DNA of 64,000 nt from an uncultured virus (IMG/VR IMGVR_UViG_3300025011_000036) (lineage: Duplodnaviria > Heunggongvirae > Uroviricota > Caudoviricetes), in IMG/VR virus record IMGVR_UViG_3300025011_000036. The stretch is one strand, 5' to 3'. Each line of letters begins with the position of its first letter. The stretch's first letter is position 1. A model generated the notes under the pieces. That model ran no database searches. It had not been told where the DNA came from and saw only the letters and a list, made by a program, of their open reading frames with translations. The position numbers were made by a program, and so were the translations under genes. Positions 1-59,462 of the stretch are shown here, one piece after another.

Positions 1-351
1 TAGGACATGGCACAAAGCAAAGACTATTGGATATCCGGTAGCCAATGCTGCACAGATGAGAGTTGTGCTAGATGGCTGTCGCTCTACACTACTAGTCATT
101 ACCAAGGATGAGTATTGTCCTTGTCCTGCTCTCCCTGCTCTGCCCTATGGGGTATGTCTGATCTGCCGGACTGACCGGACACTAGGGGTAGGGGGACGGT
201 ACTAGGACCACCGAGGCATGGGGCCGGTATACCCCTCGTATATATGTATACCTATCCCCCTATCTCTCTCATTAATTCATCAACCATGAATACCTAAACC
301 TCTCCTACAAAAACATAATCCACAAGTATATTCATACGAACACTTCCTAAT

Positions 352-418
352 AAACTCAATACATAAAGCATAACTCCAACATAAGCATGAACCCCAAACA
401 TAAAGCAAAGCCCAATAC
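352..418 (+). repeat. Three to four imperfect ~18-nt tandem repeats (aactc/ccaa..cataa(a)gca)
   Basis: aactcaatacataaagca / taactccaacataagca / tgaaccccaaacataaagca / aagcccaatac. Confidence 0.6.
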
Positions 419-626
419 CGCATTCCAAATTTTGCGCGCTCAATTTTTATATATTTTTAGTAATGCCCTTTGCGAGAGTGAGGGGTGTTTGACGTTGGAA
501 TGGAACGACGTAAGCAAGACCCAAGAGAACTACTCTTAGTGTGACGACAAGCCAAAACCCTGTACCCCTTGGGGGAGTAAGGAAATATAGAGGTTGTGAA
601 TTATCACACTTGAAACGGCTAAGGCG

Positions 627-1232
627 GTGATGAAATTGGACGAAAAGTCTACAAAGTATTTTCAAAGGGATGTCAATGCGGTCATTATGCCAGTTATGTT
701 TAGTAGGGAAAGACTGGGTAACGGGAGGGAATACATCACGGCTACCGACCCTGATACCGATAGGATTCTCTATGGATTCTTTAATAAATATCGTCCTCCT
801 AAACCAGCCAAGGTTATCGAACTTGGTGTAGAGGGAGAACTGGATTCTGAGAAAAAGCCAAAGAAGAAGAGTTCCGGAAACAAGCTCACCTATGCCAAGT
901 TGTACATCAGTGAGATACACAAGTACCCAAAGGATAAATTGAGTTATGAGTACGCTGGGATGTGCATGCACTTGGCAACCTATATCGAGTGGCATGATGG
1001 AAGTCTAGTCGTCGGTACTGGCAAGCGAAGGAAGCTAATGGAACGCAAGGACATATCAAAGGAGTTGGGGGTTAGTGATTCCACAACCAGGAGATTCGTT
1101 GCCAAGCTCGAAGAGTTGAAGTTAATCTCCAAGGTTGGGGATTCCTATAAGATGATTGGTAAGTTATTCGGCAAGGGAAAGGAGATAAATGTTACTCCTG
1201 ATATTCCAATGAAGGGAGATGTTGTGCCTTGA
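627..1232 (+). CDS. HTH DNA-binding protein, RepL/MarR-like C-terminus
   Basis: C-terminal wHTH 'RKDISKELGVSDSTTRRFVAKLEELKLI'. Confidence 0.6.
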   Translation: MMKLDEKSTKYFQRDVNAVIMPVMFSRERLGNGREYITATDPDTDRILYGFFNKYRPPKPAKVIELGVEGELDSEKKPKKKSSGNKLTYAKLYISEIHKYPKDKLSYEYAGMCMHLATYIEWHDGSLVVGTGKRRKLMERKDISKELGVSDSTTRRFVAKLEELKLISKVGDSYKMIGKLFGKGKEINVTPDIPMKGDVVP

Positions 1233-1399
1233 AAAATCCAAAGGAAGTCCTAAAAGTTGTAGTTGAATTTGATGAATACGGATTACCTAAACTGCCTGGT
1301 GATGGCGAGTATCCAGAGTGGGTTGCTTATGCGATACAAGAGTGGAGAACTTCATTGATATCAGAGAAGAAGGCTTTGGGATTAAGTATCCCCGAATAA
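1229..1399 (+). CDS. Small hypothetical protein (56 aa)
   Basis: TTG start overlapping upstream stop, preceded by AAGGGAG; fills the gap exactly. Confidence 0.5.
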   Translation: MKNPKEVLKVVVEFDEYGLPKLPGDGEYPEWVAYAIQEWRTSLISEKKALGLSIPE

Positions 1400-1414
1400 T
1401 TAAATAAAGAGGAG

Positions 1415-2146
1415 TTGGCTTTAGATATGCCGATTAGAAGAGAAAAGATTACAACGTATGAACAGGCGTTTAGATTAATTCATGTTTCGGTGACAGGAAA
1501 AGCAATGTTTATAGTTAAGGATTTAGAGAAACAGGGACACAATGAGAAGAGTATTTCTTTTGCAATATGGAAGTCGTCGGAAAAACTATGCGGATTAAGA
1601 AATGACCCAAGGTTTGAGAGTATTTTTATTAACGAGATAAGAAAGTGGTCATGGCCTAGCGGTGATCCTCGATGGAAAGAGTTTCACAAGAAAAAAGAAG
1701 AAGAACTTAAAGCCATTGAATTAGATAAAATTGAAAAAAAGAGAAGAAATCAGGAACAATCTTACAAAAAGAGATATCCTGGTTTTATTTATTTTATACA
1801 GGGTGAATCCGGTGGTTCCGTAAAGATTGGATATGCCGCAGATATTACAAAGCGGATAAAGACATTACAGACAGGTTTCCCAGAAACTCTAATTATCGTT
1901 AAATCATTTCCGGGGAACATAAGCGATGAGGGCGGATTCCATGAAGAGTTTAAGGATTTTCGCATAAGGGGCGAGTGGTTTGATCCCATAGTATTGGAGA
2001 GTGCCGATATGGTTGTTGGTAAGATCCAAAAGGATAAGCAGTTTTGCTGCAAAAAGTGTGGTGGAGAGGAGTTAATGAATATCTTCGATGAAATGGGATT
2101 AGTTGGACGCGCTTGTGTGAGGTGTGGATTATTGGTGAAAGCTTAA
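1415..2146 (+). CDS. GIY-YIG family nuclease (T5orf172/MUG113-like)
   Basis: 'GFIYFIQ...VKIGYA..ITKRIKTLQTG...RIRGEWF'. Confidence 0.8.
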   Translation: MALDMPIRREKITTYEQAFRLIHVSVTGKAMFIVKDLEKQGHNEKSISFAIWKSSEKLCGLRNDPRFESIFINEIRKWSWPSGDPRWKEFHKKKEEELKAIELDKIEKKRRNQEQSYKKRYPGFIYFIQGESGGSVKIGYAADITKRIKTLQTGFPETLIIVKSFPGNISDEGGFHEEFKDFRIRGEWFDPIVLESADMVVGKIQKDKQFCCKKCGGEELMNIFDEMGLVGRACVRCGLLVKA

Positions 2147-2217
2147 TCGTTCCTCCCTTAACCCCTTCTTCCAAACTTAAACCCTTGATTACAAGCCCAA
2201 TTTCAGGAGGAAATAGC

Positions 2218-2391
2218 ATGTCTGAAAACCGAGCATGTAAAGTATTTGATCCAAAAGACCCTACTTACGGCAAAACCAACTGCGCTTCATGCCTCGTATT
2301 CAACGGAACAACCTGCAAAGACGAACCCTATGTGATGGCAATACATGAACCCGCAACAATTATCCATACCGGATGGTGTAACCATGGCTAA
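2218..2391 (+). CDS. Small Cys-rich hypothetical protein
   Basis: AGGAGG SD before ATG 2218. Confidence 0.55.
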   Translation: MSENRACKVFDPKDPTYGKTNCASCLVFNGTTCKDEPYVMAIHEPATIIHTGWCNHG

Positions 2392-2426
2392 TATAGATAT
2401 CTCTATTATTATTGGAGGTGATGCCA

Positions 2427-3940
2427 ATGCCCAACATTGATATACGCATAAGTGCTAAAGTGTTCAACAAGATATACATGCCATGCCTAGAGACTGATTT
2501 CCGCTATGAAGTATACTATGGTGGAGCCTAGCTGGATCGGGAAAGTCGGTATTTATAGCGCAAAAGTACATCTATAAGATGCTCAAGCAAAAGATGAATC
2601 TGCTAGTCATACGGCAAACTGGTGATTCTAATAGAGATTCGACGTTCGCCTTATTAAAGCAAGTTATAAACGAGTGGAAGGTTGATCACCTGTTTGTTGT
2701 CCGCGAGTCTGATCTTCGCATAACATGTAAGGCAAACGGTAACGCAATGTTATTTAAGGGGTTAGACGATGTAGAACGTTTGAAGTCCATAACCTTCTCT
2801 AAGGGCGAGTTGACTGATGTGTGGATAGAAGAGGCTAGTGAGGTTGAAGAGTCAAGTTTTAACCAATTAGACATTAGGCTTCGTGGAGGAAAACAGAAGA
2901 AACAGGTCATTATCTCCTTCAATCCCATTAACATAACTCATTGGCTCAAGAGGTTTGTCGATGATAAGCAAGAGAATAAGATGTCACTACATACCACCTA
3001 CCATGATAATAAGTTCATTGACGACGAATACAAGGCTCTCTTGGAGTCGTACAAAGAAAAGGACCCTTATTATTATGACGTATATGCTTTAGGTCAGTGG
3101 GGCGTTTTAGGCAAAACCATCTTCAATGCTCACAAGGTCAATGAACGTCTAACCCTAGTCCGAGACAGATACCCGGTCAAGCAAGGTTCCTTCACATATG
3201 ATTATGTGGGAGAGAGAATAGTAGAGTCATCTATTCGTTGGGTAGAGTCGGACGATGGATATATAACAATCTACGAGGATGTCATACCAGGCCTAACCTA
3301 TGGCATTGGTGGAGACACATCAGGAGATGGATCAGACTACTTCATAGGTCAGGTTATAGACAATACATCAGGTAAGCAGGTAGCGGTCCTTAGGCATCAA
3401 TTTGATGAGGACTTATACGCAAAGCAAATGTACTGCTTGGGTAAATACTTCAACTGGGCACTCATTGGTATTGAGACAAACTACAGCACATACCCGGTCA
3501 AAGAACTTCAACGCCTTGACTACCCAGAACAGTATATTCGAGTAGTAGAGGACACCATAAGCCAAACAACACAAAAGAGGTATGGATTCCAAACAACTAA
3601 GCTAACAAGACCAATTATTATTGCCGATTTAGCCTGCATCGTTCGAGAGCAAACGGAGCTTATAAACGATCCTGAAACCCTGAACGAAATGCTAACCTTT
3701 GTTCGTAACAAAAAAGGCAGACCCGAAGCAATGCCTGGTGAGCATGACGACCTTATCATTGCCTTAGCAATAGCCTACTACATCAGGGAACAAGGTATTA
3801 TTAACGGCACGATCGTAGCGGCGGTAGCAAGGAATACGAATACAACAGTTAATCATGACTACCAAAACGGAAAACATTGGTCGGAGATAGAGGATGAGCA
3901 GGACGAAGAAGGAAGTTTCATGAAAGGTTGGGATTCCTAG
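2427..3940 (+). CDS. terL: Terminase large subunit (PBSX-type), interrupted by a 5-nt stop-containing insert in Walker A
   Basis: GGAGGTG SD + ATG 2427. Frame 1 reads ...YEVYYGGA* (TAG 2529-2531). Frame 2 resumes GSGKSVFIAQK at 2534 and continues into Walker B 'DVWIEEA' and nuclease 'HDDLIIALA'. Confidence 0.92.
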
Positions 3941-36006: not shown

Positions 36007-36750
36007 ATGAGGACGATTGATTATCCAACCAAAACTCAGGAAGAATATGACCAAAGCTGGCTTGAGCGCAGGAAATTAAGAACGGATAACAAAGCCCTTC
36101 ACAGTTCTAAAGAGAGCGTTAAGGATGATGAATTATCCACAGAAATACTTAATTACTGGAACTCAAAAGGAATAATTGTTCATCGTAAATACTCAAAAAG
36201 AACGCCACTTATACTAAGAAAAATAATTAAGGATTACTCTAAGGAAGAGATATTAAAAGCAATTGATAATTATGTAACAGTTATCAACGATAATAAATAT
36301 TTGTTTGATTACAAATGGAGCCTTGAAACATTTTTGCAAAAACCAAACGCTTTTCCTGATTTTGTAGATGGAGGAAGCAAGTGGTTAAGTTATCTGGCGT
36401 CTATAACCATAAAAGACAAACCTAGAAAAGAGCAACCGACTTTAATTATTGGACCGAATGATAAGGTTATAATTGCCAGTAGCGACTTTCATTCTATTGA
36501 AGAATCATACTTAGCGATGATTGACGCTTTTAACCGTATGCCATACGGTGAATACTTACAGACTTCTCATTGGTTACATTTTAAAGGAGAAGCATTGAAA
36601 GATGCAGGTTTTAAATGCCGAACGTGTTGCAGTAAAGAAACTGTCCTGAATGTACATCACAATAATTATAGTAATCGCGGTCGAGAGACATTTAATGACG
36701 TTGTTGTGTTATGCGAAGTATGCCACGCCAAATTTCATAATAAAGAATAA
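36007..36750 (+). CDS. Phage initiator-like helical domain fused to HNH nuclease domain
   Basis: 'EILNYWNSK...EEILKAIDNY...SLETFL' + 'CRTC...LNVHH..Y...DVVVLCEVCHAKFH'. Confidence 0.65.
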   Translation: MRTIDYPTKTQEEYDQSWLERRKLRTDNKALHSSKESVKDDELSTEILNYWNSKGIIVHRKYSKRTPLILRKIIKDYSKEEILKAIDNYVTVINDNKYLFDYKWSLETFLQKPNAFPDFVDGGSKWLSYLASITIKDKPRKEQPTLIIGPNDKVIIASSDFHSIEESYLAMIDAFNRMPYGEYLQTSHWLHFKGEALKDAGFKCRTCCSKETVLNVHHNNYSNRGRETFNDVVVLCEVCHAKFHNKE

Positions 36751-40137: not shown

Positions 40138-40533
40138 TTAAACATATTCCCCACCCATTCGACCATTCGTCGCTTTAGACATGTACACGGTACCGCATTC
40201 CAAACAAGTTAAGCTGATTATGTCGTAGTCCTTGCCGTGGTTCTCCTTCTCGGTGCGTAAGTATCGAGCCTCCTTTGTCCCAGATCCGCATCCTGGGCAC
40301 TTGTTGGTCACTCTTGCCCCTTCGATCGAGATAATGGGTAGATCCTTATAGTACTGAATAATTCTGACTGAATAATCGAAGATAGGCATCCTATGAATAT
40401 TGGGATACTTATTGATAATTTGGGCTATCCAGCGCATTAAATTGTTCCGACTACATTTACCATGGGCGTATAGATTGATGAGCTTGTGGACGTGTTCACG
40501 GTCCTCTAAGGTGGGAAATTTTATTGCTAGCAT
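40138..40533 (-). CDS. Zinc-finger hypothetical protein
   Basis: AAGGGAGTG SD; CPGC...CLEC. Confidence 0.6.
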   Translation of the reverse strand: MLAIKFPTLEDREHVHKLINLYAHGKCSRNNLMRWIAQIINKYPNIHRMPIFDYSVRIIQYYKDLPIISIEGARVTNKCPGCGSGTKEARYLRTEKENHGKDYDIISLTCLECGTVYMSKATNGRMGGEYV

Positions 40534-40628
40534 GTGTTCACTCCCCTTTTTTGTCTGATGATAAGGTATATGACCATTTGGGTATAATATGACTAATCGG
40601 TCATTAATTGAGTAAAAAAATATAGCCC

Positions 40629-40817
40629 TTAATCGGGCCATAAGTAATCGACAGTTTCCTCAAGTGCTTTCGCTATTCGCTTTGCAACAAAAAGAGAAAG
40701 ATTTGGTTTTAAATCATTTTCTATTAAACTGATGTGTCGTTGGTTTACTTTTGACAATTTCGAAAGATCATTTTGAGTCAGACCTCTTTTAAGTCTAACC
40801 TCCCGGACTCTATTCAT
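40629..40817 (-). CDS. XRE-family HTH regulator
   Basis: 'RLKRGLTQNDLSKLSKVNQRHISLIEN...IAKALEETVDYL'. Confidence 0.8.
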   Translation of the reverse strand: MNRVREVRLKRGLTQNDLSKLSKVNQRHISLIENDLKPNLSLFVAKRIAKALEETVDYLWPD

Positions 40818-40892
40818 ATTCATCACCACAGGAAATATATTCCACATAGAGGGGTAATACCCTGCTTGCATAAAAAATATTGCCATCAAGTT

Positions 40893-40942
40893 TGTTGTAC
40901 TAATTAATCACTACCAACGGGAAGTGGAGAACTAGTACAACA
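40893..40942. other. Putative attP of the serine integrase
   Basis: 50-bp imperfect inverted repeat TGTTGTACTA...CACT..AGTG...TAGTACAACA directly after the integrase stop. Confidence 0.65.
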
Positions 40943-40944
40943 TA

Positions 40945-42277
40945 TTAAATAAAAAAAATATCAAAATGCTTTTCATTGTCGATCTTAATTTCTTTTATTA
41001 TTCCTCTCCATAGAGTTCTCTTTTCTGTTTTTTTCAAAGTAATATAAATACTCCTGAAATCACTCTGAAGGAAATCCCTAAGTCCCTGTACATCAATTTT
41101 TTCAGATGGAGTCTCGTTATTCTTTAGTTGATCAGTGTACATATCGAAATCCTTTTTATACTCATCAATGTCAATGAGATTGTTTATATAAAGCTCCTTT
41201 AGCCTAGTTAGTTTATTTTTTATTACAGATTTATTAACCTTAGGTTTCTTTTGTTGCTCAACTTTGATTTCATAGTCAACGATATACGAATTTATTTCTT
41301 CTTCAATGTGATTGATTAAATATTCTTCAACGTAGTTCTCGCTAACGGCATATTTACGAGTACACAAACGTCTTTGAACATATTGATAACAACGATAATA
41401 TTGATATTCTTTATATCCATTATGTGTCATCGCTCCGGATAATCGGCTACCGCATTCAGTACAGGTAAGTAAACCGGAAAAGATATAAATTCTGTCGGTT
41501 TGATTTCTACGATAAGTCTTTCTTTTTAATATTTCTTGAACATTATCAAACTGCTTAATTGAAATAAGTGGCTCACAAAAATCTTTAACGTTTTGGAATT
41601 CTCCTTTGTATAGTGAGTTAGAAAGTACCCTTACAACGGAAGAGTAAGATAAATTAACGTCATATTTATCTCGTATATAGGTGATAGTACCCCTTCGGCT
41701 TTGGTTTAGCTCAAAATGATTAAATATTTCTATAACTAACCAAGTATTATCATTGTCATGCACCACATGTTTTTTCTCGATCTTCAGTCCAATTGGGATA
41801 GAACCGGTAATAGCTTCTTTTCGTTTTACTTTATTTTCGAAAACAAATTTGATGCGTTCGCTTGTTCTGTCAGATTCATCTTGAGCCACTGATAGCATGA
41901 TATTAATATGTAGCCTACCACTGGCCGTTGTGGTGTCGTAATTCTCAAGGATAGCCCTCCATCCCACGTTATGCTTATCTAATGTTTCTTGGATTTTATA
42001 ATAATCCTTAACACTTCTAAACCAACGATCCATTTTCAGGAAAATGATCAAGTCAAGTTTTCCGGCCATAACATCGTCTATCATCCTCATAAATTCTTTA
42101 CGGCTACTGTACGCCTTCCTGGCCGTTTGTCCTTCATCTACATATGTATCTACTATTAACATGTCATGCTCTTGCGCATACTTCGTGAGAGCTTCTTTTT
42201 GTGACTGGATGGAATATCCGTGATGAGCCTGTTCCAATGTGCTGTCAAACCCGAATGTATATAGCTACTCGCATCAT
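40945..42277 (-). CDS. Large serine recombinase (integrase), interrupted by 4-nt TGAC insert at the catalytic motif
   Basis: MMRVAIYIRV*; after 4 nt, STLEQAHHGYSIQSQ. Resolvase 'KMDRWFR', recombinase domain, Zn ribbon 'CTECG..YYRC' and coiled coil are intact. Confidence 0.9.
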
Positions 42278-42930
42278 TCAGTGATCATCCCCTTTTTTAT
42301 TCTATGGTGCTCCATTGCATGTTCTCTATGCGACTGGAACAACCTCAAATTTTCTATTTCATTATTTACTTTGTCTTCATCAATATGATGGACAATTTCA
42401 TTATCAGTTAAGTATCTCCCAAGTAATTCCTCCATAACTAGCCTATGCTGGTAAACGTAACCACGATTATCACAATGAGGGTGACTGGGCATTTTAATTT
42501 CTACATAGCCATTTCCCTTAATATGTTTACCTCCTTTCCAGTTTCCGCTATTTTCACCTTTTCTACCGTGTGAAGCCTTTTCTGCCTCTGGCATTACTCT
42601 TCCCTTAGACCAATGGCACCCCCTGGTTTTAATTGTTGCTTTTAGCCTTTCACTTTGTTCTCTCTTGTATTCATCAGTGAATCTCAGGCCATACATCCCA
42701 TTCTTTTCCCCTGATCTGTCATAAATCTTTAACGCTTCTTCCAGACTGCGCGTTTCGATATTATATTTTTTTAAATGACTATGAATGGTCATGGCGGTCA
42801 CATTAAGTAATTTTGCAATATTCGTACATCCTAATTTTTCGTTTGTGTAAAAATTGTTCAAGGTTTCCTTTAGATCTCTTCCTTCGTCCATAAACCTAAT
42901 TTCTAATTTTGATACAGCCATAATATACAT
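42274..42930 (-). CDS. HNH homing endonuclease (NUMOD3-like + HNH_3)
   Basis: 'GEKNGMYG', 'NWKGG', 'YVYQHRLVME..LGRYL...EIVHHIDEDKVNN.IENL'. Confidence 0.88.
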   Translation of the reverse strand: MYIMAVSKLEIRFMDEGRDLKETLNNFYTNEKLGCTNIAKLLNVTAMTIHSHLKKYNIETRSLEEALKIYDRSGEKNGMYGLRFTDEYKREQSERLKATIKTRGCHWSKGRVMPEAEKASHGRKGENSGNWKGGKHIKGNGYVEIKMPSHPHCDNRGYVYQHRLVMEELLGRYLTDNEIVHHIDEDKVNNEIENLRLFQSHREHAMEHHRIKKGMITE

Positions 42931-43062: not shown

Positions 43063-43485
43063 CTACGCTCTTTTAGCCTGGCTGACGTACTCTTCTCTTG
43101 CAGCAGCCTCTTCGTCTAATTTAAGCTCGACAATGCCTAGTACCTTCATTTGGTTGTCGTGGGATAGTTTACGCCATGAAGTGATTAGTTTTTGTTCGTC
43201 GTTGGATAGCTCAATAGATGGGCTTTCATGCACACAACTTTTTTCAGCTCCTAAAAGCCATGCGATATCAACGTCGAGTGCATCTGCGAATTCGTTTAAC
43301 TTAGACGTTGTAGCGTCTTCCACTTTCCCGGATTCGTACTTAGATACGCTTCCCTCGGAAAGATTAACCTTTAGTCCTAGTTGTTTCTGGGTTAGAGATA
43401 GGATCTTTCGCCTTGACCTTATCCTACTACCTATTTTTACATAATTTAGAAGAACCATTCCATTACCCCCATTTCTTAGCAACAT
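43063..43485 (-). CDS. CI-like repressor (XRE HTH); start may be 43458
   Basis: 'LTQKQLG..VNLSEGSVSKYESG...FADALDVDIAWLLG'; divergent from cro. Confidence 0.85.
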   Translation of the reverse strand: MLLRNGGNGMVLLNYVKIGSRIRSRRKILSLTQKQLGLKVNLSEGSVSKYESGKVEDATTSKLNEFADALDVDIAWLLGAEKSCVHESPSIELSNDEQKLITSWRKLSHDNQMKVLGIVELKLDEEAAAREEYVSQAKRA

Positions 43486-43891: not shown

Positions 43892-44677
43892 TTGGTAATT
43901 ACATCAAAGCTAGTTCAGGGTGGAAAATTCAGGGTATTAGAAAGCGGAGTTATATACAAAATTAAAGACGGCAAGGAAACATTGGCGAACATTGTTATGA
44001 CCACTAGGCTTAAAAAATATGGGATTGTAAGTTTTACCGAAAATTCCAAGCAGAAACATTATTATGTCCATAGATTAGTTGCCGAAGCATTTTGCGAAAA
44101 CCCAAACAACTATCAACAGGTTAACCATTTAGACGGGAACACGCTAAACAATATTCCAAGTAATTTGGAATGGTGTACCCCAAGTCAAAATATTATCCAT
44201 GCATACAAAACCGGATTAATAGACCGAATCAAATATACCGAACCATGCCAAGTATGTGGTCAGCCAACTCACTCAAAGGATGGAGTGTGTTCAATATGTA
44301 ATCGAGAGATGTTGAGTCAAGCACATACAGACGGTGCTTTGTCAGAGTTAAGAGAAAGGCTATCGATTATAAATCCAGAGTCACTGAACCAAAGACAAGC
44401 TGAAATCTTATCACTTAGACTAGAAGGTAAGACGCTTCAAGAAATAGGCGATAAATTCAAAATGACCAGGCAAGGTGTGGATCAAATCATAGGGGGCTTG
44501 CTAGTAAGAAGTATCTCTCCGATTAAAAAAAATCACTTAATTGGGAAAGAGCGTAAAAGACTGTTAGCAAAGATATCAAAGAAAGAGGGCAAGGTTAAGG
44601 CGGCACTCGACATGGTTGAGGAATTAAAAAGGGAAATAAGATCACTTAAGGGATTACTAGCTGAATTTCCGGGATAA
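43892..44677 (+). CDS. HNH endonuclease with C-terminal sigma70-region-4-like HTH
   Basis: 'YVHRLVAEAF...VNHLDGNTLNN..SNLEWCTPSQN' + 'KTLQEIGDKFKMTRQGVDQI'. Confidence 0.85.
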   Translation: MVITSKLVQGGKFRVLESGVIYKIKDGKETLANIVMTTRLKKYGIVSFTENSKQKHYYVHRLVAEAFCENPNNYQQVNHLDGNTLNNIPSNLEWCTPSQNIIHAYKTGLIDRIKYTEPCQVCGQPTHSKDGVCSICNREMLSQAHTDGALSELRERLSIINPESLNQRQAEILSLRLEGKTLQEIGDKFKMTRQGVDQIIGGLLVRSISPIKKNHLIGKERKRLLAKISKKEGKVKAALDMVEELKREIRSLKGLLAEFPG

Positions 44678-54399: not shown

Positions 54400-54867
54400 A
54401 TGGCTTATCAGTATTGGATAACTCCCGAACATTACTCTATAGCAGAAGAAAATGGCATAAGTACAAACACTCTAGAAAAGAGAGTTCGGGACAGAGCGTG
54501 GCCGATAAAAGAAGCCATAACTACCCCTCCAAAAAAACGCAATTTATACACAGAATGGGTTGTATTAGCTAAGACAAATGGGATAGGCAAGAGAACATTC
54601 GAGACAAGAATTTACAGGCATGGATGGACCCCTGAGAAGGCAGCAACTACGCCTGTACTTGATCCAAGGAACAACATGAAAGTGGTCGGAGAAGCAAATC
54701 GAAAGCATCAGAAAAAATATGAGGAATTGGCACTCAGGAACGGTATTTGTCGCAGAACTTTTTTAAGCAGAGTGCTTAGGAAATGGAGTCTTGAGGATGC
54801 GGCAACTAGGACGGTGGAAACTAATCGTTGGCATAGCGATAAAAAGAAGGAGATGGAGAAGAAGTGA
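54400..54867 (+). CDS. Repeat-HTH phage protein, paralog of 57543..57977
   Basis: Three 'A..NGI...TF..R....W..E.A.T.P' units. Confidence 0.65.
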   Translation: MAYQYWITPEHYSIAEENGISTNTLEKRVRDRAWPIKEAITTPPKKRNLYTEWVVLAKTNGIGKRTFETRIYRHGWTPEKAATTPVLDPRNNMKVVGEANRKHQKKYEELALRNGICRRTFLSRVLRKWSLEDAATRTVETNRWHSDKKKEMEKK

Positions 54868-57542: not shown

Positions 57543-57977
57543 TTGGTTGTGATGAGCTATAACTTCTATATCCCACCAACTGCATATGAAATAGCTAATA
57601 AAAACGGAATAAGCACAAGGTTACTCACTGACAGAGTAAGAATCCTGGGATGGAGCATTGAAAGAGCAAAGAAAGATCCACCTCGAAAGCAAGGTGATTG
57701 GAAGAAGTGGACAGGTGTTGCAAAGGAGAACAATATTCCCCTCTCTGCATTTTACAGAAGGGTAAACGAATTGGGTATGAGTCCAGACGATGCAGCAACC
57801 ATTCCCATGATGGGCAAGAGAACACTGATAGACAACATAGCAATAGCAAAAAGGAAATACCCCAAGGAATACGAGGACATGGCATTGGCTAACGGGATTG
57901 GAAAGAAAACTTTTGTGAGCAGGATGTTTAGGAAATGGGATCCTTTAGAGGCGGCGACTAAACAAGTTAAGAGATAA
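57543..57977 (+). CDS. Repeat-HTH phage protein, paralog of 54400..54867
   Basis: Same repeat unit. Confidence 0.65.
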   Translation: MVVMSYNFYIPPTAYEIANKNGISTRLLTDRVRILGWSIERAKKDPPRKQGDWKKWTGVAKENNIPLSAFYRRVNELGMSPDDAATIPMMGKRTLIDNIAIAKRKYPKEYEDMALANGIGKKTFVSRMFRKWDPLEAATKQVKR

Positions 57978-58363: not shown

Positions 58364-58715
58364 ATGAACTACTTCGACGAAGCCCGAAAACTCCTACCCC
58401 TCTCAAACTGCCTAAAACGTCACTACGCCTGTGTAATCGTGATGGGTGGTCGAAGTTATATCCAATGGGTATAATGAGTCGCCTGAAGCATGTACTACGT
58501 GCTCTAGGATGGATATTGAACATAACACGGGAAGTTATGATGATTGTTTAGCCGTGCATGCTGAGGTTTCTGCTTTGGTTAGGTCTAAGGTTGATCTTGG
58601 GGGTGCTGAGTTATATCTAGTCTGCTCGGATGAGGTTGATCCTATACCGTGTCCGGCATGTCAGAAGTTGTTGGACTTCGCAGGAGTTAAACAGGTGAGG
58701 GAGGTGCAGAAATGA
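58364..58715 (+). pseudogene. dCMP deaminase with +1 frameshift near 58451
   Basis: Frame 1 MNYFDEARKLLPLSNCLKRHYACVIVMGG, one extra C, then EVISNGYN...HAE...PCPAC. Confidence 0.75.
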
Positions 58716-58928: not shown

Positions 58929-59462
58929 ATGGGTAATACGGAAAGAAGTAGAAACATTTGGGATGGAATTCAAAGACGATGCAACCCTGATAATTGGAAC
59001 GGTAGTCTTTTGAACTACAAAGGGTGTTGGTGTTGTGATGAATGGTTATCGTATAAGAACTTTAAAATATGGTATGAAGAAAATACGTACAACATTGACG
59101 GAGAGAACTTAGACATAGACAAGGACATTATAGTTCGCGGAAATAAACTATATAGCCCGGATACATGCGTACTTGTCCCACACGGTATAAATTGTATTTT
59201 TAGAAAACGTACACATCCTAAGTTTAATCACCCCGTAGGAGTTGTGATTGACCGTAAGACGGGTAAGTATAGAGCTAGGTGTAGAGATGGGAAGCTTATT
59301 TTGTGGGGAACTATATTTCACAATACGCCTCACGAGGCTTTTGTGGAATATAAGGAATTAAAAGAATCCTTAATCAAGAAACACGCAGAACTCTACAAGC
59401 CATTAATACCGAAAGTTGTATATGAAGCAATGATTAATTATCAAGTAAGTATCTATGATTAA
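58929..59462 (+). CDS. HNH-like endonuclease
   Basis: 'W.GIQRRC...C.EW..YKNF..W...DIDKDI...NKLYSPDTC.LVP..IN'. Confidence 0.7.
   Translation: MGNTERSRNIWDGIQRRCNPDNWNGSLLNYKGCWCCDEWLSYKNFKIWYEENTYNIDGENLDIDKDIIVRGNKLYSPDTCVLVPHGINCIFRKRTHPKFNHPVGVVIDRKTGKYRARCRDGKLILWGTIFHNTPHEAFVEYKELKESLIKKHAELYKPLIPKVVYEAMINYQVSIYD

Follow-up and report, generated by a model that had tools for sequence, protein, structure and literature searches.

Serine integrases govern the entry of temperate phages into the host genome and their exit from it, and they are widely used as tools for genome engineering. In the stretch of phage DNA analysed here (64,000 nt, hereafter the window), the gene for such an enzyme is split at its catalytic motif by four nucleotides that include a stop codon. 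This raises the question of whether we are looking at an assembly error, a dead gene, a gene rescued by an unusual movement of the ribosome, or the product of some process acting on the DNA itself.

The minus strand reads ATG ATG CGA GTA GCT ATA TAC ATT CGG GTT TGA C AGC ACA TTG GAA CAG (positions in Table 1). The upstream frame translates as MMRVAIYIRV followed by TGA, and STLEQAHHGYS... resumes 4 nt further on in the +1 frame, in which the integrase body runs uninterrupted through 432 codons, starting at AGC and ending with its stop, down to position 40945. The split of the YIRV|ST motif by TGAC that the sequence-only reading had proposed is thus borne out by the strand between 42277 and 42235, although the same insert can equally be written as TTGA placed within a GTC Val codon. 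The gene product has Pfam matches to PF00239 (E 2.7e-25), PF07508 (22.4 bits for a cut-off of 21.1), and PF13408 (E 5.9e-12), and its PHROG match is the integrase family phrog_95 (E 4.5e-90). Judged by these three domains the gene is a large serine recombinase by descent, but the Y-x-R-x-S motif with the nucleophilic Ser in frame is missing from it, and as predicted under standard decoding it is not an intact enzyme gene. For the ORF that starts at TTG 42237, the Pfam Resolvase match begins at profile position 12 and the alignment with the TP901-1 integrase structure (3bvp) at chain residue 15, so this ORF lacks the catalytic N-terminus and, as had been claimed, the nucleophilic Ser with it. 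Scored against a profile built from 24 intact homologues, the truncated ORF obtained 654.9 bits, the product of a +1 slip 673.6 bits (with the need for an insert state), and the conceptual product of a 4-nt skip 680.1 bits, the highest of the three and the one aligning without an insert state. Since the scores rise when the stub is joined (it contributes ~25 bits), the stub is a true homologous N-terminus, and it resembles those of homologues such as P0005 (MIRAAIYLRVSTLEQAHHGYSIQ). The sequence and these scores also agree with the earlier statement that a +1 slip would give RV-D-ST and that the 4-nt skip alone would give the native motif.

Table 1. Features discussed in the text (window coordinates) and junction codons of the seven genes with 6-nt inserts.
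Feature	Positions	Strand	Remarks
cI-like HTH repressor gene	43063..43485	-	first gene of the lysogeny block
HNH_3 endonuclease gene	42274..42930	-	stop overlaps the integrase ATG (ATGA); Pfam HNH_3 E 3.3e-10; PHROG HNH families
Extended Shine-Dalgarno-like stretch	42281..42294	-	AAGGGGATGATCAC; ahead of the ATG of the stub
Integrase N-terminal stub	42248..42277	-	MMRVAIYIRV, 10 codons; conserved beta-1 strand and catalytic Arg
4-nt insert TGAC	42244..42247	-	in-frame TGA (42247-42245) and one base, C (42244)
Codons around the insert	ATG ATG 42277-42272; GTT 42250-42248; AGC 42243-42241; TTG 42237-42235	-
Integrase body	40945..42243	-	nucleophile Ser codon AGC to stop; otherwise intact; Resolvase, Recombinase, and Zn_ribbon_recom domains
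Putative attP	40893..40942		50-bp imperfect palindrome; arms of 23 nt around a 4-nt centre; 3 nt beyond the integrase stop
HNH-type genes	36007-36750, 42274-42930, 43892-44677, 58929-59462; also 54400-54867, 57543-57977		PHROG calls
Bridging contig, X6 record 21	41878-42636
Bridging contig, X12 record 5	42191-42400
L245 (= L251) junction			CGG GTT TAG GTC AGC
L247 junction			CGA GTT TAG GTC AGC
L252 junction			CGT GTT TAG GTC AGT
L246 junction			CGT GTT TAG GTT TCG
L249 junction			CGC GTC TAA GTC AGC
L248 junction			CGT GTT TAG GCC AGC
L250 junction			CGC GTT TAA GCC AGC

A read-level error, named beforehand as one way in which this picture could fall, was checked. Logan contigs of two other studies bridge the insert (by a 31-nt rule) with no differences and no gaps, while in a further set (X8) two contigs overlap across the insert with neither bridging it, and X13 has no coverage of it. 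The truncated protein call has been recorded on 19 contigs, and the insert site is not a homopolymer. All that speaks for a sequencing or assembly error is the general prior attached to metagenome assemblies, and we consider its chance practically nil. The 100% identity cluster of the window integrase comprises truncated calls only, and its 90% cluster has no full-length member. One viral record (G001) is 100% identical to window positions 32621-64000, but it represents the same haplotype and so adds no independent depth for the insert. No near-identical DNA was found among sequenced phages, and the exact 40-nt stretch adjoining the insert gave no match in the metagenome collection, from which the records of this same phage were possibly excluded.

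From its gene content the window is one temperate-type phage genome, with terminase, portal, head, and internal virion protein genes, an endolysin, anti-repressors, a cI/cro pair, recombination and replication genes, and many HNH genes. Beyond the window end G001 continues and runs into a copy of the window start that is 96% identical and partly replaced, which implies a genome of ~70.5 kb, circular or terminally redundant, with at least two mosaic variants. In the comparison of this G001 portion (L005 17914-19530) with window 1-2559, the two are ~96% identical at 1-491 and 2155-2559 and do not match at 492-2154, where the window carries a T5orf172/MUG113 (GIY-YIG-like) gene (1415-2146) and G001 a Terminase_2 small-subunit gene, a difference that resembles a mosaic exchange within the packaging module. 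The ~6.5 kb outside the window also hold an ArdC-N and zincin-metallopeptidase (anti-restriction-type) gene (L005 14719-15567, minus strand). Within the window, HNH-type endonuclease genes are unusually numerous and scattered between conserved genes (Table 1). One of them (58929-59462) lies ~200 nt downstream of a dCMP-deaminase-like gene (58364-58715, plus strand) that is itself frameshifted: MNYFDEARKLLPLSNCLKRHYACVIVMGG... and the ...EVISNGYNESPEAC...HAEVSAL...PCPACQKLL that continues it are read in different frames (the latter in +1), as a single surplus base around GGTGGTCGAAG would bring about.

The lysogeny block on the minus strand runs in the order cI-like repressor, HNH_3 endonuclease, and integrase, which comes last. 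Just beyond it lies the palindrome that, from its size and shape, we consider a putative attP. Contigs of all four runs (4/4) cross it straight, with no loose end, so that only the unintegrated attP form is seen, and we count this in favour of an integrase that is off. Neither a second integrase nor a partition gene appeared among the window ORFs scanned. Downstream of the palindrome (40138-40889, minus strand) an HTH gene (40629-40889) is accompanied by an ORF of 167 residues that contains CxxC pairs and matches no family; both are on the integrase strand and could be an excision or regulatory pair.

Among the relatives of the window integrase the motif is kept in frame with great consistency, being found in 157 of the 157 evaluable homologous loci (159 were examined and two are cut by contig ends) and in nine of ten metagenome relatives, the exception (L169) being broken at the same junction. 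It also lies within the first 45 residues in 113 of 119 protein relatives; two others have long N-terminal extensions, reaching beyond the 45 residues examined, and four are short calls, two starting at MHGYS (P0022 and P0096) and two later (P0099 and P0114). Both P0022 and P0096, from the subfamily of the window, are called from the Met of ...EEQAMHGYS..., as expected from a stop at Val|Ser, and may be further cases interrupted at the junction.

The sequence-only reading had called for a survey of recombinases carrying a stop and one extra nucleotide between YxRV and ST. In the viral collection that exact 4-nt form was seen in the phage of the window alone, but the same Val|Ser junction is broken, by 6 or 7 nt, in at least eight other phage serine-integrase genes, mostly distantly related. 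The nine interrupted genes verified at the DNA level are that of the window (4 nt), seven with a 6-nt insert consisting of an in-frame stop and a G-N-Y triplet (Table 1), and L169, 46% identical to the window integrase, with a 7-nt insert in which the stop again comes first (GTT TAG GGTC AGC). When the viral collection was scanned for gaps of 0-8 nt after an Arg-Val-stop, 46 raw loci were retrieved, six of them true recombinases, namely the twin of the window and four genes (one seen twice) with 6-nt in-frame inserts. The general 6-nt pattern gave eight loci in the same collection, all true recombinases and representing seven distinct genes, which are 24-57% identical to each other and have open bodies of 397-465 codons. 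This 6-nt pattern was not found in five host genomes or in 401 sampled genomes of one class. In the viral contigs the general 7-nt pattern gave no match, and the general 4-nt pattern gave only the twin of the window and one false positive (TGG, not a recombinase). These scans demanded a stop after the Val codon, and stop-less inserts would escape them; L169 and the MFAFNAST forms described below came up without that requirement and both are still stop-first. As a control for the rest of the gene, 166 of 170 homologous loci had unbroken bodies, three ran off the contig, and just one had an internal stop elsewhere, so the breaks are specific to the junction. L169 lies, by our reading of the host-like ORFs just downstream, at the edge of an integrated prophage. 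In L169 2806-4282, right after the interrupted integrase, what we read from the translations as part of a membrane-protein gene is followed by a gene resembling RecO, so the prophage seems to be lodged within a host gene while its integrase is disabled. The open-access literature searched gave no account of serine recombinases whose catalytic Ser is a site of recoding or of repeated insertion. One retrieved study, on phage DW2 (PMC4124061), was set aside, the group I intron described in the part of it consulted being in a tail hydrolase and not in a recombinase.

The inserts resemble each other beyond their position. Among the relatives of L250, R-V-S is found in 144 of 146 and R-A-S in none, which indicates that the Val before the stop is the native residue; by the same comparison the insert consists of a stop and a G-N-Y triplet placed after Val and before Ser, or can just as well be described as 6 nt within a GTC codon. 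In the nine genes the triplet before the Ser codon is GTC in five, GTT in one, GCC in two, and GAC in the window. The Ser codon is AGY in 8/9 interrupted genes vs 64/167 intact ones (p 0.004), and the Val codon before the stop is GTT in 8/9 vs 34/121 (p 0.0005), while the context read as an insert inside GTC AGC fits 8/9 interrupted and 12/167 intact genes; the intact set in these comparisons comes mainly from the own subfamily of the window.

With the whole class in view, the likeness to the +1 frameshift site of prfB that had been claimed for GTT TGA C does not hold up. In prfB, according to the portion consulted of a recent preprint (bioRxiv 10.1101/2024.09.24.614795), the site comprises AGGGGG, a 3-nt spacer, CTTT, GA, and C, with TTT as the sole variant of the P-site codon. 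A frameshift of this kind would sense RF2 and yield RV-D-ST. The window shares with prfB the hexamer TTTGAC, an in-frame UGA with C after it (42247-42244; a combination that makes a weak stop), a preceding T-rich codon, and the fact that a +1 move reaches the downstream frame. However, the P-site codon is GUU and not CUU (or, rarely, UUU), and its move to UUU would lose pairing at the first position. The AGGGGG element 3 nt upstream is absent, with just a GGG abutting or overlapping the shift codon. There is no RNA structure at the site either, which folds no better than its shuffles (z +1.14; 180 of 200 shuffles at least as good). Nor is the arrangement conserved, being found in 0 of the 157 viral and genome loci, with the ten metagenome relatives either intact (nine) or broken differently (L169), and the other members of the class have UAG or UAA, mostly in frame. 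Unlike that of prfB, the +1 product is not the native sequence of the family, as the catalytic Arg and Ser are set one residue further apart in it, which breaks an R-x-S spacing that is kept in 157/157 loci, 167/167 genes of the codon tally, and 146/146 motif-bearing relatives of L250. We therefore regard a prfB-like frameshift as very improbable, and a tie between the site in the window and RF2 levels as unsupported.

The interrupted alleles are recent. Two 55%-identical pairs of genes with the insert (dN ~0.40, synonymous sites saturated, stubs conserved) could be taken as a sign of ancient conservation, but this was ruled out for the L245/L247 pair, the nearest relatives of both being intact alleles. 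The best 120 relatives of the L245 body are all intact, one of them at 96% identity. The window and L169 are likewise nearest to intact proteins (60% identity for the nearest intact relative of the window integrase), and the fact that each of these four is closest to intact proteins argues for independent origins of the inserts. Within clusters of at least 90% identity, intact and interrupted forms coexist and both occur on many contigs. Truncated calls of the L245 type were found on 19, 12, and 1 contigs, alongside intact forms, those of the L246 type on 30, 3, 2, and 1, and those of the L249 type on up to 37 contigs per sequence, some of these contigs being >300 kb. Four of the cluster alleles were verified in DNA, and the remaining truncated calls, known as protein calls, are consistent with an insert. 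The two states may be separated by hardly any change in the body, with no difference over 462 columns in P0463/P0470/P0471 and a single residue in both P0456/P0460 and P0155/P0434. The L249 cluster also includes MFAFNASTMEQ forms, in which the body frame is read back across the junction, like TFGFDST in the window; on back-translation they fit GTT TAA C GCC AGC, which would be a second 7-nt variant. The stubs, for their part, differ between intact alleles of one cluster on near-identical bodies, and L245 and L247 share a patch of 90-97% identity from about -77 to -2 of the stop, outside of which they fall to 0.6-0.8 identity downstream and to unrelated sequence upstream. Because the stubs vary within a cluster and this patch ends at the insert, the junction is also a mosaic boundary. 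On these comparisons the interrupted alleles are young and polymorphic, which leaves their maintenance as recoding sites unsupported.

An isolated, ordinary pseudogene, that is, a random 4-nt insertion in a decaying phage with no relation to the other cases, would suit some features of the window, for whose phage no second haplotype is known, whose nearest intact relative is as distant as stated above, and whose dCMP deaminase gene is frameshifted too. The integrase pseudogenes of grounded or domesticated prophages have likewise lost integrase function, and L169 is found at the edge of an integrated prophage. However, ordinary decay would be expected anywhere in the gene, and lesions elsewhere are rare (1/170), whereas the junction, the GTT codon, the stop-first layout, and the AGC context recur in the eight other genes, with one sequence style at one site. 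We thus find an unconnected accident in the window improbable.

A more demanding alternative is that the ribosome crosses the gap. The sections consulted of the review by Atkins et al. (PMC5009743) describe synthetic "stop-hops", credited there to Weiss et al. 1987, in which matched codons flanking a stop work in Escherichia coli, and state that no natural occurrences are known. Here, with a stop in the A site, the peptidyl-tRNA-Val would leave GUU, slide 4, 6, or 7 nt, re-pair on the G-N-Y triplet, and resume at AGC, so that the native YxRV-ST enzyme would be made but throttled to a low level, with in-frame and out-of-frame gaps all decodable. The layout is suggestive, the stop lying directly 3' of the Val codon (GTT TGA in the window and GTT or GTC with TAG or TAA in the other eight) and a G-N-Y triplet adjoining the Ser codon on its 5' side in 9/9 DNA-verified genes. 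This is the sole reading that restores the invariant R-x-S spacing in all nine, as the conceptual product of the window illustrates (680.1 bits). The out-of-frame cases, L169 and the window, are beyond rescue by readthrough and still place G-N-Y before AGC. The length variants (4, 7, and the back-translated 7 nt) are confined to the insert, with none elsewhere in genes of 1.3 kb, and every stub has kept its start codon and a strong Shine-Dalgarno sequence, those of all seven 6-nt cases being like the one in the window. Set against this, deep conservation is lacking, each tested case being nearest to intact alleles. The landing codon is GTC or GTT in six of the other eight genes, but the GCC of two and the GAC of the window mismatch the Val anticodon at the middle base. 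The window phage has no tRNA gene that we could find, and the window no Rfam match, in addition to the missing RNA structure. A hop would also leave the codon-context bias and the HNH association (see below) unexplained. The comparison with the bypassing of T4 gene 60 is similarly divided. As in that system and in synthetic stop-hops, a take-off codon is followed by a stop, a matching or near-matching codon precedes the resume codon, and the skipped stretch may be in any frame. Here, however, the gap spans just 4-7 nt, neither a nascent-peptide signal nor a stem-loop turned up, the alleles are young, polymorphic, and unconserved, and the landing triplet of the window is imperfect. The hop offered in the sequence-only reading thus gained circumstantial support from the stop-after-Val, G-N-Y-before-Ser layout of eight further genes and lost ground to the youth and polymorphism of the alleles, and we judge it unlikely, though not negligibly so. 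In its strongest form, as the first natural stop-hop, a throttle that would keep integrase scarce across gaps of 4, 6, or 7 nt, the TGAC of the window included, it is a shade more doubtful still.

The other observation that bears on the origin of the inserts is the gene next to two of them. An HNH_3 gene that comes after a repressor gene and overlaps the beginning of the stub is present in both the window and L246. Aligned over 207 aa, the two HNH proteins share 34% identity (E 2e-30), though the integrases are distant. Homologous HNH_3 genes abut 2/9 interrupted genes vs 0/163 intact loci (p 0.0024), the latter being those with at least 500 nt of upstream flank from 169 searched. However, upstream of the other seven interrupted genes no HNH gene occurs within 1.5 kb, and their neighbours are ordinary ones (HTH, KilA-N, and toxin-antitoxin genes). 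The 21 weak viral HNH relatives include none beside a recombinase, the matches in sequenced phages are at the level of the HNH domain only, and the L246 integrase has no match closer than 35% among them. The arrangement recalls the free-standing homing endonucleases of phages and their "intronless homing", as treated in the parts consulted of PMC2790892, PMC2988022, and PMC10448857. As in those systems, a free-standing HNH gene adjoins a conserved gene, the neighbouring integrase allele is altered at its most conserved stretch of DNA, and the junction is a mosaic boundary, with the L245/L247 patch ending at the insert. Unlike in those systems, protection would come from an insert that contains a stop and disables the neighbour gene, an arrangement of which we have met no description, and most interrupted alleles are without an adjacent endonuclease gene.

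Taken together, this class of interruptions exists in nine DNA-verified genes, is young, coexists with intact alleles, favours one codon context, and falls at one junction. We lean, by somewhat more than an even chance, toward the view that these are integrase-off alleles produced by a recurrent, site-specific process at the DNA level. The TGAC of the window is a real and recent change that moves the catalytic Ser out of frame, and ordinary translation would give only a 10-residue peptide and no active integrase. It is one of a set of tiny inserts of 4, 6, or 7 nt, each beginning with a stop, that recur in large serine recombinase genes exactly between the codons for Val and the nucleophile Ser, where a sequence-specific process presumably acts on the most conserved stretch of the gene, the resulting alleles probably serving to keep the integrase off. 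Residual integrase, if any, would need a ribosome hop. As to the process itself, our leading guess, which we hold only tentatively, is attack by a site-specific nuclease, for example, the upstream HNH endonuclease of the window and L246, followed by survival or spread of alleles in which the target is disrupted. A homing-type nuclease would account for the choice of target, for the mosaic boundary, and for the link with HNH genes (for the principle, see the sections consulted of PMC2790892 and PMC2988022). The inserts are nevertheless far too alike (stop first, then G-N-Y) for random repair scars, a likeness that the nuclease model leaves unexplained, and the fact that all bodies are still open also fits continued use of the gene.

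A recurrent, sequence-specific interruption just before the nucleophile codon, in many lineages and beside intact alleles, is apparently undescribed in the open-access literature. Gene callers report such genes as N-terminally truncated recombinases, so that surveys of integrases and of prophage mobility misjudge them. If the inserts were driven by a nuclease, they would represent a new form of selfish-gene conflict with the lysogeny switch as its casualty. If ribosomes hop the gap, they would be the natural stop-hop that, in the sections consulted of PMC5009743, the recoding field calls never found, with an output of either a harmless peptide of 10-17 residues or the native enzyme. The pattern points to an unrecognised site-specific on/off process acting on the integrases of temperate phages and not to a one-off accident.
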